Shown here piece by piece: positions 1 through 10,392 of a stretch of 10,392 nt of DNA. The position numbers and the translations under genes were made by a program. Below the pieces are notes generated by a model. It was not told the DNA's origin. It did no database searches and worked only from the letters and a program-made list of their open reading frames with translations. The stretch covers positions 1-10,392 of the IMG/VR virus record IMGVR_UViG_2534681697_000028. The stretch is one strand, 5' to 3'. Within the stretch, counting starts at the first letter, position 1. Each line of letters opens with the position of its first letter. This DNA is from a virus (lineage: Duplodnaviria > Heunggongvirae > Uroviricota > Caudoviricetes).

Positions 1-300
1 TTACCGCCGTAAGTGCTCCGGCTTCCTCCACTGGTAAGTATTTTTCGCGCTCTCCCTCCGTTGTTGAGAACGGCGACGATATGCCAGCAACTCAAGGACT
101 CTTGTTCGTATGTTGCGCATATCCACGCCGTTAAGCTCAATACCGTCACGGCGCATCACCTCAGCCACCACACGCGCGTAATTTTCAGCGGTGACGCTGT
201 CCGGCTGCGTGGCCACCTGTTTGCCTGTTGCCTGACAGATTCCGGTAATACGGCGGATTACTTTCAGTAGTTCGGCGTCGGTCATGGTTATGGTTTCCAT
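1..300 (-). CDS. hypothetical protein (99-aa ORF); probably the C-terminal part of a ~125-aa HTH protein that starts at GTG 385 in another frame
   Basis: Complete ORF with stop at 1-3. Its own ATG at 300 has no Shine-Dalgarno, whereas GTG 385 (track ORF 185..385) has GAGGTG 4 nt upstream and encodes an HTH-like N-terminus (MATQTEVARHLSLTDRQLRRLQKLFP). The two frames meet at a G5 run (307-311); removing one G fuses them in frame. Confidence 0.5.
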   Translation of the reverse strand: METITMTDAELLKVIRRITGICQATGKQVATQPDSVTAENYARVVAEVMRRDGIELNGVDMRNIRTRVLELLAYRRRSQQRRESAKNTYQWRKPEHLRR

Positions 301-463
301 AGTGATGGGGGAACAATTTCTGTAATCTGCGAAGCTGGCGATCGGTCAGACTCAAATGCCTGGCAACTTCAGTCTGAGTAGCCACTGTTCACCTCGCCCA
401 AAAATCTCCCCTCATGCGTTTTAAACATGCATCTTGCGAACAACTTTATGAAACGCGGCATAT

Positions 464-560
464 ATGTCCGGTTTGAGTGTTCAATTTTTGCGCATGTCCG
501 GTTCGCAGAAAGCGCATTTCTATATTTTTCAAATGGTTAACCTTCAGAGAAACCGGACAT
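464..560 (-). promoter_or_regulatory. three copies of a 10-bp motif ATGTCCGGTT (464-473, 494-503 direct; 551-560 inverted) upstream of the gene starting at 385; candidate operator array
   Basis: Exact 10-mer repeated three times in about 100 bp between the capsid-operon terminator and the next gene start. The third copy sits inside the hairpin gaaacc-ggacat-ggtttc (548-565). An 8-bp palindrome ggttaacc lies at 535-542. Confidence 0.45.
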
Positions 561-641
561 GGTTTCCGAAAAATTTTCATAAATAGTGAAATTCTGCGCC
601 GCTCCCGCCCCGTGGCAGGCCACCCCACCGGAAGGACCCGC

Positions 642-665
642 AAAAAAAGCCGGATTTCTCCGGCC
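642..665 (-). terminator. rho-independent terminator of the capsid operon
   Basis: Stem gccgga/tccggc (649-654 / 659-664) with loop tttc, preceded on the plus strand by A7 (642-648), which is a U-run on the minus transcript. It lies directly after the stop of the 137-aa gene at 671. Confidence 0.7.
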
Positions 666-670
666 TTTTC

Positions 671-1084
671 TCAGATGGTTTTCAGTATGCGATCGATTTC
701 GCCGTCATCACCCTGATATCTGCCATCGTATGCCATGCCAGGGCTTACGGCCTGCGGGCTGTGCATGTCCATAAAGTTTTCAAAGGCTGCGGTAAGCTCC
801 GGCGCAACCTTCGGGCGTTCCTGCTCTATGGTCATGTTCAGGATTTCCCGGGCATTATCGACGCTAATACATGGCACGTTTGCCATTGCACGTAACAGCG
901 GCTGATAGTCGTCAGATTCATGAAGCGCCATAATCGCATCAGTGCGCGGCTTGTCCTGCTCTTCCAGTTTGTTAAGTTGATATATAGCCTCGTAGGTTGA
1001 TAAACCTCTGTCCGCCATTGCCCGCGCTTCGGCTTTAAATTTACTCGCTAGCGGTAGCGCCATGATAGCTTCATTGATTGCCAT
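671..1084 (-). CDS. hypothetical protein, 137 aa, last gene of capsid operon
   Basis: ORF with SD AGGGGG 4 nt upstream of ATG 1084; starts 10 nt after the stop of the upstream gene; followed by the terminator. No family recognised by eye. Confidence 0.6.
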   Translation of the reverse strand: MAINEAIMALPLASKFKAEARAMADRGLSTYEAIYQLNKLEEQDKPRTDAIMALHESDDYQPLLRAMANVPCISVDNAREILNMTIEQERPKVAPELTAAFENFMDMHSPQAVSPGMAYDGRYQGDDGEIDRILKTI

Positions 1085-1096
1085 CGTTCCCCCTGC

Positions 1097-1387
1097 TTAT
1101 CGCACCAGTGGCTGAACGGATACGCCAGAACCCGCAAAAGCGGCGCATTTTTTCGCGTCGGTGTCGACGCTCTCGGGCCAGTTAACGGCGGCGATATTAA
1201 ATATCCCCGTCTTGTAACACTGTGCTGATTTCTGCTTTGACGTGTCCACGGGGTACGCCGTCAGATAAACAGCCTTGCCAGATTCCTGACCATCCCACGC
1301 CTTAAACTCGCCATTGTCCGCCAGCATCAGCGGAAAAATGTACCAGCGTCGTGGCAACCTGCTGTGTGCCTGCATATAACTCAACAT
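1097..1387 (-). CDS. hypothetical protein (96-aa ORF); likely true start at ATG 1400 in another frame (apparent frameshift at the A5 run 1334-1338)
   Basis: ATG 1387 has no SD. ATG 1400 lies 11 nt after the capsid gene stop, has a strong SD GGGAGA, and encodes MGTPYVELYAGTQQVATTLVHF before stopping after 32 aa. Removing one base of the A5 run joins it in frame to the 96-aa ORF. Confidence 0.5.
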   Translation of the reverse strand: MLSYMQAHSRLPRRWYIFPLMLADNGEFKAWDGQESGKAVYLTAYPVDTSKQKSAQCYKTGIFNIAAVNWPESVDTDAKKCAAFAGSGVSVQPLVR

Positions 1388-1411
1388 ATGGAGTGCCCAT
1401 AGAATCTCCCG

Positions 1412-8659: not shown

Positions 8660-8754
8660 TTGCATTGCCCACCAGCCTGATAGCGTCTATCATCCCCGTG
8701 CTTATGTTTGGGATCACATACACATAAGGCGCAGCGGGTTAATTGTTCAGAAAG

Positions 8755-8781
8755 GCGGCTCCATATCGGGGCCGCTTTTTT
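8755..8781 (+). terminator. rho-independent terminator of the plus-strand RHH unit
   Basis: Stem gcggctcc / ggggccgc (8755-8762 / 8768-8775, one G-U pair), loop atatc, then T6 (8776-8781). Confidence 0.65.
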
Positions 8782-8807
8782 CGTGTTTGTCATATCTGTG
8801 ATACCCG

Positions 8808-9014
8808 TTAAGCAGCCGTTCCGCGTGCTTCCTGTTCGCGTTCTTTCTGCCAGGCCAACACATCATCCTCATACCATCCGCGACGGCGTAAACCAACGCG
8901 AAAACCCTGCGGAAATTCTCCGGCGTTGATCATGCTTTGCAGCGTGCTGTCTGCCTTGATGTGGATAATTTTTTTTACTTCCTAGCGAAAGATAATTTTT
9001 CTGATTGCTTCCAT
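8808..9014 (-). pseudogene. alpA: AlpA-family (MerR-like HTH) regulator interrupted by an in-frame TAG at codon 11
   Basis: From ATG 9014 (SD AAGGT upstream): MEAIRKIIFR-TAG-EVKKIIHIKADSTLQSMINAGEFPQGFRVGLRRRGWYEDDVLAWQKEREQEARGTAA. The part after the stop matches the AlpA pattern (HTH, G.FP, G.R...W, E.DV..W). The TAG (8982-8984) falls at the conserved R-L-x-E-V position. The next ATG (8933) has no SD and would give only 41 aa. Confidence 0.6.
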
Positions 9015-9125
9015 CGTGATTTACCTTGTGAATCCGGTGTATTCCGGTGACAAATACGGTAAATCATCGGATATGGGTAAAAACAGTTCCCACCGTTTTT
9101 ATATTGATGATTTGAAATGGAATTA

Positions 9126-9150
9126 TAAAAAAAGCGGCATTTCTGCCGCT
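9126..9150 (-). terminator. rho-independent terminator after int and the 83-aa ORF
   Basis: Stem agcggca / tgccgct (9133-9139 / 9144-9150), loop tttc, with A7 (9126-9132) on the plus strand, a U-run on the minus transcript. Confidence 0.65.
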
Positions 9151-9160
9151 TCCAGGATTG

Positions 9161-9412
9161 TTACCGCCATTTTTGGGGCCTGCCTCCGATCTTCATAGAT
9201 GCCGGACGTACGACCTTATCAATACTTACCGCCAGATTTCTGGAAGCGCCACGGGATACCAGAAAATCTACTACCTGTTTTTTTGATGGGGCCGTCGTTC
9301 TGTCCTCCGGATCGTAGGTTGACCAAAATTCATGCTGAACCATCAGGGCCAGTTGCAGCCCGTCGCAATTGCATCTGATATTTTTTTGCATCTTAACGGT
9401 TTCATGTTTCAC
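9161..9412 (-). CDS. hypothetical small protein downstream of int (start GTG 9412 or ATG 9405)
   Basis: ORF ending 11 nt before the minus-strand terminator; AAGG 9 nt upstream of ATG 9405. Function unknown. Confidence 0.45.
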   Translation of the reverse strand: MKHETVKMQKNIRCNCDGLQLALMVQHEFWSTYDPEDRTTAPSKKQVVDFLVSRGASRNLAVSIDKVVRPASMKIGGRPQKWR

Positions 9413-9489
9413 GGCCTTGTCGTTAAATTTGATGCAATTATACGATGGTTTTACATGGTTTTCGTAGTTTTTACTGGTTTTCTGTACAG

Positions 9490-10392
9490 CTACACGGCTC
9501 GGATACCCCTTTTACCACTGGCGAGGGTTACGCCCGTCGCCGCAGCCTCGACAAATTCGCCCCACCAGCGCATCAGCACGATGCGTTTTTCTATGTAGTT
9601 GCTCCGGTTGTATGCCCGTCTAACTTCGTTGGTGTCGACGTGGGCAAGTGCCGCCTCTATTACGTCCGGCTCGAATCCTTCCTCGTTCGCTGCTGTGCTG
9701 AATATGGCGCGTAATCCATGAGACACCAGCACGCCAGTGAATCCCATACGCCGCAATGCTGCGTTAGCGGTCTGGCTGTTCATCGGCTGCTGTGGGTCTT
9801 TCAGACTTGGGAAAACGTAATTGCGGTGGTGGCTGATTGGTTTCATGGCCTCCAGCACCGCCATAGCCTGACCGGAAAGCGGGATAACGTGATCCCTGCG
9901 CATCTTCATGCGTCCGGCAGGTATCGTCCATTGCTTCGCGTCCAGGTTGATTTCATCCCACCGCGTTGATGACGCTTCGGCGGGACGGGTTACGGTCAGT
10001 AACTGCCATTCAATCAGTAATCTGGTCTGCCGTTCTGTTGCCGATACTGATAAAGCCTGCATAAGCTCCGGCAGCTGTTCGGGGCGGATTGTTGGCATAT
10101 GTTTTTTTACAGGTGAGGGAAACGCCTTACGCACATTCATAGCCGGATTGGCATCAATCAGCCCACTGTTGGCGGCGTAATCCATTACCTCATTAACGCG
10201 CTGTAAAACCCGCTTGAGTGTTTCCAGGTTGCCGCGCTCCTTGATGGGTGTAAGCACCTCAACGAACCTTCGGGCGGTGAGGGTATCTATTGGCGTGTTG
10301 CCGATGAACGGGAATACATATTTATCCAGCGAACGCCAGATATCTTTAATCGTGTTGGGGGCCAGATTCTGGCTGATTTTCACCGGTACCAT
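9490..10392 (-). CDS. int: tyrosine integrase, P4-type (partial; N-terminal ~100 aa beyond the window edge)
   Basis: 300-aa frame open to the window edge with core-binding region (VFPFIGNTPIDTL..., cf. P4 Int HVFPVIGNLPVADL) and catalytic motifs (TRPAE, HVIPL, SHGLRA = H-x-x-R, RRAYNRSNY = catalytic Y). C-terminus LMRWWGEFVE resembles P4 Int MMQWWADYLD. The missing N-terminal arm-binding domain implies the real start is outside the window. Confidence 0.92.
   Translation of the reverse strand: MVPVKISQNLAPNTIKDIWRSLDKYVFPFIGNTPIDTLTARRFVEVLTPIKERGNLETLKRVLQRVNEVMDYAANSGLIDANPAMNVRKAFPSPVKKHMPTIRPEQLPELMQALSVSATERQTRLLIEWQLLTVTRPAEASSTRWDEINLDAKQWTIPAGRMKMRRDHVIPLSGQAMAVLEAMKPISHHRNYVFPSLKDPQQPMNSQTANAALRRMGFTGVLVSHGLRAIFSTAANEEGFEPDVIEAALAHVDTNEVRRAYNRSNYIEKRIVLMRWWGEFVEAAATGVTLASGKRGIRAV

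Follow-up and report, generated by a model that had tools for sequence, protein, structure and literature searches.

Phage-inducible chromosomal islands (PICIs) that belong to the classical, cos-type kind in Gram-negative bacteria have as their prototype EcCICFT073, an island of Escherichia coli CFT073 (Fillol-Salom et al. 2018, ISME J; 2019, Mol Cell). In that island the integrase gene int and the regulatory gene alpA are essential for transfer, and deletion of the primase gene pri lowers transfer about 100-fold; AlpA acts as an activator, the pri-ori segment can replicate on its own, and packaging is cos-dependent and requires the small terminase subunit (TerS) of the helper phage (PMC6092414). 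A redirecting protein, RppA, binds helper TerS and diverts it to the PICI cos, away from that of the phage (PMC6739421). Genes c1499 and c1500 of EcCICFT073 were described as capsid and head-decoration homologues (PMC6092414), and SatelliteFinder counts "capsid morphogenesis" among its five core markers of enterobacterial PICIs, with 97% of the five-marker PICIs found in E. coli (PMC10085698). Here we compare with these systems a stretch of 10,392 nucleotides, the whole of which we call the window, taken from the IMG/VR record IMGVR_UViG_2534681697_000028 (positions 1 to 10,392). We are confident that the window comes from within a classical Gram-negative PICI of the EcCICFT073 family, one that Shigella boydii ATCC 9905 carries beside tRNA-Pro (proL), with yejM and yejO on either side; this copy has most probably lost its mobility. 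The element type is already known: we are dealing with a decayed copy of a well-studied E. coli satellite family.

All 10,392 bases of the window are 100% identical to contig AERN01000081.1 of assembly GCA_000193915.2, whose source strain is S. boydii ATCC 9905 (PMC6397287). The contig reads yejM, tRNA-Pro(GGG), attachment (att) repeat, island, att repeat, yejO, the att sites being 26-nt core direct repeats spaced 11,964 bp apart; no tRNA gene was found inside the window, tRNA-Pro standing just beyond it. As expected of a PICI, the integrase gene lies at one end of an island within the 10-15 kb range that has att repeats at both borders. The integrase frame is broken in this copy. A first-pass annotation made from the sequence of the window had called it a satellite-type element and not a prophage, on account of an integrase, an AlpA-type regulator, a P4-family primase and iterons, and had proposed to look outside the window for att repeats, a tRNA and further head genes. 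The source contig bears this out. It holds the repeats and the tRNA, and neither its flanks (gene content) nor the open reading frames (ORFs) of the window (Pfam and PHROG scans) include portal, protease, large terminase (terL), tail or lysis genes, so that an ordinary prophage or a capsid-forming PICI (cf-PICI) is not supported. The integrase, the primase/helicase, the adjacent iterons and the gpE-family capsid gene named in that annotation are likewise all real, far beyond chance. Our annotation is based on Pfam, PHROG, NCBIfam and Rfam scans, the last at gathering thresholds, and the features are collected in Table 1.

Megablast against complete E. coli genomes finds related islands in thousands of genomes, and an exact-protein look-up with the major capsid protein (MCP) of the window returned matching contigs in several assemblies. 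The same yejO-tRNA-Pro/yejM site also holds related islands in E. coli Nissle 1917, in S1-CAM-02-A and in an O121 strain. In annotated genomes, the proL PICIs of E. coli Nissle 1917, ATCC 25922 and O121 have in common with the window the integration site, the int-proximal region and an integrase of ~96% nucleotide identity, and their capsid operons are 88-93% identical to that of the window at the nucleotide level. The O121 island resembles it further in a truncated terS gene (the terS' stub), a phage-type cos and a C4/isrK RNA module. The Nissle island differs in having a complete 180-aa TerS homologue, in having kept ssb, and in being free of the insertion sequence (IS) ISEc20 and of the int, alpA and decoration-gene lesions. 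Outside the window, the island runs on from its last gene to the distal att repeat for ~1.1 kb (locus L011, 12468-13603) without a convincing ORF; the corresponding stretch of the Nissle island measures only ~0.5 kb.

The gene order common to the window and EcCICFT073 is int, alpA, (YlcI), icd, small ORFs, DUF4222, pri, ori, (ssb-perC), orf68, MCP, decoration gene, orf137, (rpp) and last gene. The modules agree in orientation as well as in order, and from the primase to c1501 the proteins are 88-95% identical. The likeness extends to an origin of iterons and AT-rich DNA and to a cos that adjoins the capsid operon; ahead of pri both islands have a DUF4222 gene and small ORFs, and in the regulatory region YlcI and Icd-like genes. 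The first-pass annotation had not recognised the arrangement among the described enterobacterial satellites and had suggested a comparison with characterised families; that comparison ends in the match to EcCICFT073, and the arrangement is therefore the defining layout of a described and experimentally studied family.

The two islands also differ. EcCICFT073 is integrated at roxA-phoQ and not at proL-yejO, and its integrase is only 22% identical to that of the window. It carries rppA with two lambda-type cosN sequences, whereas the window has no rppA and one cos with a non-lambda cosN-like sequence. It is without the C4/isrK module, it has kept ssb and perC, and it has neither the IS nor the lesions of this copy. 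The AlpA proteins are divergent: the intact Nissle orthologue of the window's gene and EcCICFT073 AlpA share 28% identity (E=2e-7) and match PHROGs 66 and 2790 alike, and the Pfam Phage_AlpA match of the Nissle protein stays sub-threshold at 17.6 bits.

In the replication module, Pri is 95% identical to its EcCICFT073 counterpart at the protein level. In the adjoining origin the motif GGTAGAVAG occurs five times within 3450-3555, against 0.11 copies expected by chance, and TCTACC-type copies continue to 3325. Origins of E. coli PICIs consist of two iteron sets around an AT-rich region (PMC6092414), and the layout in the window agrees with this. Beyond the origin, orf93 is what remains after the loss of ssb and perC. 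In a BLAST comparison with the Nissle PICI, window positions 3005-3072 fall within ssb, and the sequence from 3064 onward corresponds to that upstream of ssb. EcCICFT073 and the Nissle island both carry ssb, and EcCICFT073 carries perC too; both genes are deleted in the window.

The capsid gene had been regarded in the first-pass annotation as the only structural gene, a view that has to be given up: gpD-like and Nu3-like genes follow it, and after them comes a cos. The MCP itself is 90% identical to c1499 of EcCICFT073 and matches PDB entry 3BQW ("putative capsid protein of prophage"; E=2e-217), a near-identical homologue with a crystal structure. It is 45% identical to the lambdoid gpE of the CFT073 helper prophage and at most 47% identical to any of 50,697 phage records, which assigns it to a PICI-specific clade. 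The decoration gene has suffered a 32-nt deletion at ~1334/1335, between 15-nt direct repeats, and its native frame ends after 32 codons; among the five PICIs aligned the deletion is confined to this lineage. Over the last 78 aa the decoration protein is 95% identical to c1500, and the complete orthologue matches the solved decoration proteins 1TD0 and 1C5E. The third gene, orf137, matches a lambdoid gpC S49 peptidase in that protein's C-terminal Nu3 region, with 39% identity (E=4e-10), and no PDB relatives of orf137 were found. In lambda, the C-terminal region of gpC is also expressed separately, as the Nu3 scaffold. Judged by these homologies, the PICI capsid module is a trio of capsid, decoration and scaffold-like genes, the Nu3 likeness of orf137 included; in the EcCICFT073 papers only c1499 and c1500 are named as capsid and decoration homologues (PMC6092414, PMC6739421).

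Pairwise ratios of nonsynonymous to synonymous substitution rates (dN/dS) among five islands are 0.12-0.18 for the MCP, 0.18-0.5 for orf137 and, in comparisons with an informative dS, ~0.06-0.16 for orf68, values that indicate purifying selection, with ~0.15 as the approximate figure for the capsid trio. In published experiments, deletion of c1499 or c1500 and a tetA insertion in c1501 left transfer and interference unchanged. Ahead of the palindrome that lies upstream of the operon there is a promoter-like TTGCGC-N16-TATAAT (window 2701-2790), and the palindrome core and the region upstream are conserved in four of the four PICIs aligned. This element is a candidate operator, terminator or attenuator for the capsid operon.

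Over positions 314-640 the window agrees at 98.8% identity with a lambdoid prophage of E. coli CFSAN029787, namely with the prophage's cos and the beginning of its terS. The cosB-like part holds three CCGGACAT boxes (465-472, 494-501 and 553-560), and a cosN-like sequence, CGGGGCGGGAGCGGCGCAG, lies on the minus strand at ~594-612; it reads GGGCGGGAGCGGCGCAG, as against GGGCGGCGACCT in lambda. A search of the window for the lambda-type cosN GGGCGGCGACCT gave chance-level matches only, the single 1-mismatch match falling inside pri, and this candidate was rejected. A cos that appears fit for the terminase of a lambdoid helper is present.

The packaging slot, where PICI membership leads one to look for Rpp or TerS, holds the terS' stub alone, without rpp, and in the SatelliteFinder scheme the window would belong to Type B (4/5 markers, the packaging-redirection protein missing). 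A 66-aa ORF at 185-385 was considered as an Rpp-like helix-turn-helix protein and rejected: its first 24-25 residues are the N-terminus of a phage TerS, and the remainder is an out-of-frame run-on into orf99. From orf137 to the last gene the gap is 370 bp in the window versus 877 bp in CFT073, where rppA is found between two inverted lambda-type cosN copies. The full TerS homologue in the Nissle slot is 45% identical to the prophage TerS over the C-terminal 123 aa, and no PDB relatives of it were found; the O121 island shares the stub of the window. What fills the slot evidently varies in a modular way: Rpp, a full TerS or the helper's cos alone. That RppA might be a derivative of the prophage TerS class was also considered and rejected, the similarity not being significant (E=0.058). 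By analogy with P4 and SaPIbov5, packaging of the lineage studied here would depend directly on a helper TerS with the specificity of the CFSAN029787 prophage acting at the island cos, without redirection by Rpp.

The cos region beside rppA in EcCICFT073 also has three CCGGACAT boxes and is ~80% identical to the cos of another lambdoid prophage class (regions compared: window 450-612, L004 16160-16310 and L008 5073-5330). In that class TerS starts VATQTEVARHLSL, and the cosN-like sequence is again of a non-lambda type. In the original EcCICFT073 paper no phage cosB was identifiable in the island. A smaller point of novelty is that the cosB of PICIs may derive from the cosB of a distinct lambdoid terminase class, and that PICI and helper may exchange DNA at cos. 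In the O121 island (L007 12290-12670) PICI-type DNA gives way to prophage-type DNA precisely at the cosN-like sequence, and the window (290-670) is prophage-like on both sides. The pattern in these two islands is consistent with what would be repeated satellite-helper DNA exchange at cos.

The lesions of the Shigella copy are a frameshift in int, an amber codon in alpA, ISEc20 in the early operon, the deletion of ssb and perC, the 32-nt deletion in the decoration gene and a frameshift in the IS transposase; still open are the frames of MCP, orf68, orf137, Pri, the DUF4222 protein and the last gene. Aligned to the intact 413-aa integrase of the Nissle island, int in the source contig shows a 1-nt deletion at the right edge of the window that puts the N-terminal 113 codons out of frame. 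It is because of this deletion, exactly at that edge, that the called int gene and the window begin at an internal ATG. The alpA gene listed in the first-pass annotation is indeed there, as a pseudogene: at codon 11 (8982-8984) the CAG of the Nissle 1917 orthologue has become TAG. The AlpA feature of the family is present by descent and, to judge from this stop codon, non-functional in this copy. Since deletion of either int or alpA abolished transfer of EcCICFT073, the copy has most probably lost its mobility. Shigella genomes typically show IS expansion and gene decay, and an immobile copy fits this setting.

Several points weigh against a defective EcCICFT073-type PICI as the reading of the window. 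The copy is known from its sequence, and draft assembly could have introduced the frameshifts of one base in int and in the IS transposase. However, a near-identical complete genome (CP026875.1; L012) likewise has int called at 300 aa and the transposase called as split, and an amber codon, a 32-nt deletion and an IS insertion do not resemble the usual mistakes of sequencing. In a host that suppresses amber codons, or with a second PICI complementing it in trans, the island could in principle still be mobilised. The low integrase identity and the different regulatory region, C4/isrK being absent from EcCICFT073, make the island a mosaic relative of the prototype and not an allele of it, and Rpp, a hallmark of the family, is absent.

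Other explanations place the island elsewhere among the satellites and prophages. Were it a functional satellite of an enterobacterial family not described before, whose mark is a single lambda-E-type capsid gene, its distinctness would lie in that gene, which is intact, remote from the capsid genes of phages and under purifying selection, and in a packaging slot without Rpp. Such a family is very unlikely, as it is already refuted by the collinearity and high identity of the operon with EcCICFT073; moreover, the capsid gene is a catalogued core PICI marker with a close homologue in the PDB, gpD-like and Nu3-like genes come after it, and the int and alpA lesions and the IS insertion in this copy speak against a functional element. 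Loss of sid, delta and psu from a P4-like satellite is another possible history. It would account for the primase, whose C-terminal 440 aa are 39.8% identical to P4 alpha (the N-terminal third differs) and which matches TIGR01613 ("primase, P4 family") with a score just below the cutoff, as well as for the AlpA-type regulator. The C4/CI-type antisense RNA, isrK and the Icd-like gene form a module similar to the RNA immunity of P1 and P4, and P4 too depends on the cos of its helper. However, P4 has sid, delta and psu, a P2-type cos and a P2-like helper, while the helper of the window is probably lambdoid, and homologues of the window's capsid, decoration and scaffold genes are absent from P4. 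Neither Sid, Delta nor Psu has a homologue in any Pfam or PHROG scan of the window, in agreement with the first-pass annotation, and an operon of E/D/Nu3 type stands in their usual place. The window gave 0 matches at <=3 mismatches to the 19-nt P2/P4 cohesive end and has a lambdoid cos instead, and the primase that is 40% identical to that of P4 is 95% identical to that of the PICI prototype. De Sousa et al. caution that int, alpA and primase alone cannot separate P4-like elements from PICIs; we consider a P4-like origin very improbable.

Decay of a lambdoid prophage, or loss of most of the head module from a cf-PICI, would explain why lambda-type E, D and Nu3 homologues occur together with a lambdoid cos and a terS fragment, and Shigella genomes are IS-rich and the island has several deletions. 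The cf-PICIs of EcCIEDL933 type do have a related left half (int, alpA, pri), and one of them (L005) carries ISEc20 at the same target. They differ in possessing a full HK97-type head and packaging module (MCP, protease, portal, connectors, TerS, TerL, HNH), which in the cf-PICI compared is unrelated to the genes found here; as the first-pass annotation had stated, the full module is missing, with no portal, protease, connector or TerL gene in the window or its flanks. Intact relatives at the same locus, like the window and the contig flanks, show no trace of portal, protease, terL, head-tail connector, tail or lysis genes. The order MCP, D, Nu3 also departs from the protease (gpC), D, E of the lambdoid prophage in L003, and att repeats bound a 12-kb island. 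A degraded prophage or cf-PICI is thereby extremely improbable, and we retain the reading of a defective PICI of the EcCICFT073 family.

Two features were absent from the first-pass annotation, ISEc20 and the RNA immunity module. The latter, composed of isrK, C4, the Icd-like gene and a1b1 (7400-7911), lies ahead of the replication operon, with a promoter-like site (7947-7918) ahead of isrK; the O121 island has it likewise, with two C4 copies (L007 20014-20677). As a family-wide trait C4/isrK was rejected, the module being absent from EcCICFT073 and the Nissle island at the Rfam thresholds used. Whether Gram-negative PICIs possess a global repressor was left undecided by Fillol-Salom et al. 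2018. An ORF of 437 aa (7480-8793), which is a called gene with a Pfam Phage_ASH match in the public assembly, was rejected as a gene: it overlaps isrK, the C4 RNA and the Icd-like ORF, its composition is not protein-like, and it is almost certainly not a protein. Phage_ASH annotations in the same region of related islands overlap RNA genes too.

ISEc20 is inserted between the Shine-Dalgarno (SD) sequence and the ATG of orf77 and splits the promoter/C4/icd region from the replication genes. Its transposase is frameshifted by a 1-nt deletion near 6545, so that the Pfam domains DEDD_Tnp_IS110 and Transposase_20 fall on separate ORFs. We compared the flanks of the element in the window (5850-5860 and 7312-7330), in the E. 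coli cf-PICI (L005 9284-10737) and in L010 and L013. This PICI, its sister islands in Shigella and the cf-PICI carry ISEc20 at the same target, with the left flank ending in ATCACGCATA and the right flank beginning with CCCCCCATTTTCAC, that is, in the SD-ATG gap of a small early gene. The recurrence suggests that ISEc20 is guided by sequence to a site conserved among PICIs. In the window the right flank deviates from that of the sister Shigella islands with the same insertion, which points to an IS-adjacent deletion later in this lineage.

The genes of the island are on the minus strand; the YlcI/DUF3950 gene is divergent, and ISEc20 lies on the plus strand. A YlcI gene is annotated in the EcCICFT073 and Nissle elements as well. 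Next to int, orf83 has no family match in Pfam, NCBIfam or PHROG. The NCBIfam scan likewise yielded no names for the small ORFs. In the gap between orf83 and alpA, 20 nt of a repeated, palindromic AAAAACGGTG element are missing in comparison with the Nissle island (window 9095-9100; alignment columns 400-419), and the missing stretch may belong to the alpA promoter region.

Table 1. Features of the 10,392-nt window, with positions, strand and the evidence for each.
Feature	Position	Strand	Evidence
orf99, last island gene	1..300	-	phrog_1561 full length, E=6.5e-49; 67% identical to EcCICFT073 last gene
terS' stub, first 24 codons of lambdoid small-terminase gene	314..385	-	phrog_7289 matches residues 2-25 only
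cos region	386..640	-	aligns with prophage cos and with rppA-proximal cos region of EcCICFT073
orf137, c1501 homologue, Nu3-like scaffold candidate	671..1084	-	88% identical to CFT073 c1501; phrog_53 at profile positions 474-566
gpD-like head-decoration gene, disrupted	1097..1400	-	Pfam HDPD, E=9e-15
gpE-family major capsid protein (c1499 type), intact	1412..2467	-	Pfam Phage_cap_E, E=1.5e-48
orf68, first capsid-operon gene	2467..2673	-	phrog_3255; 93% identical to CFT073 orthologue
Perfect 32-bp palindrome (AATTATAACTGGATGT/ACATCCAGTTATAATT), then T-run	2701..2732		just upstream of orf68/MCP operon
orf93, remnant after ssb-perC loss	2999..3280	-	phrog_1231 matches residues 12-74 only
Replication origin, two GGTAGA/TCTACC iteron sets around AT-rich spacer	3325..3560		motif count; directly after primase
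Pri-Rep primase/helicase, intact, 584 aa	3569..5323	-	Pfam D5_N, DUF5906, Pox_D5
DUF4222 protein	5320..5619	-	Pfam PF13973, E=8e-24; same position in EcCICFT073
orf77, small early gene	5625..5858	-	phrog_2196; syntenic in EcCICFT073 and Nissle
ISEc20 (IS110 family)	5860..7312	+	99.5% identical to ISEc20 copies; aligned with reference copy; flank comparison
c4-a1b1 target element	7400..7449	-	Rfam RF03163, 48.5 bits
Icd-like protein, 62 aa	7480..7668	-	NCBIfam NF033153, E=1.5e-16; phrog_1743
C4 antisense (immunity) RNA	7723..7810	-	Rfam RF01695, 78.6 bits, E=1.7e-14
isrK-type small RNA and terminator	7835..7911	-	Rfam RF01394, 56.6 bits; promoter/terminator scan
YlcI/YnfO (DUF3950) small protein, divergent	8225..8422	+	Pfam PF13132; phrog_949
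alpA-type regulator pseudogene	8808..9014	-	aligned with intact Nissle orthologue
orf83, conserved hypothetical beside int	9161..9412	-	near-identical in Nissle island
Tyrosine integrase, C-terminal 300 codons	9490..10392	-	Pfam Phage_integrase and Phage_int_M

In an intact member of the family, as experiments with EcCICFT073 have established, a lambdoid helper triggers AlpA, which turns on int/xis and the early operon; Pri-Rep then replicates the excised circle from the iteron origin, and the helper terminase cuts the concatemer at the island cos and packages it into virions made by the helper. SaPIbov5 offers a parallel, being a satellite with its helper's cos and a diverged homologue (Ccm) of the helper's major capsid protein; it differs in that Ccm was shown to redirect capsid size and shape, and its lineage is unrelated. 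We tentatively propose, as a possibility that we rate below even, that the gpE/gpD/Nu3-like trio in classical E. coli and Shigella PICIs is a working module for capsid remodelling or interference with assembly, acting on lambdoid helpers found in nature, apart from lambda, phi80 and CFT073 phage 4. The proteins of the trio could, for example, co-assemble with the helper portal into PICI-sized shells.

The annotation that suits the window is that of a defective EcCICFT073-type PICI, decayed within a Shigella genome rich in IS elements, and in itself it matters little. For the family, the comparison, of modest value, means that the packaging slot of such islands is modular (Rpp, full TerS or helper cos only), that ISEc20, of the IS110 family, repeatedly targets the same spot in the PICI early operon, and that classical PICIs carry a conserved and selected trio of capsid, decoration and scaffold genes, more than a capsid homologue. 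If the tentative proposal is true, a remodelling role against other helpers would explain why these genes are under purifying selection even though their deletion has no phenotype in the published assays.

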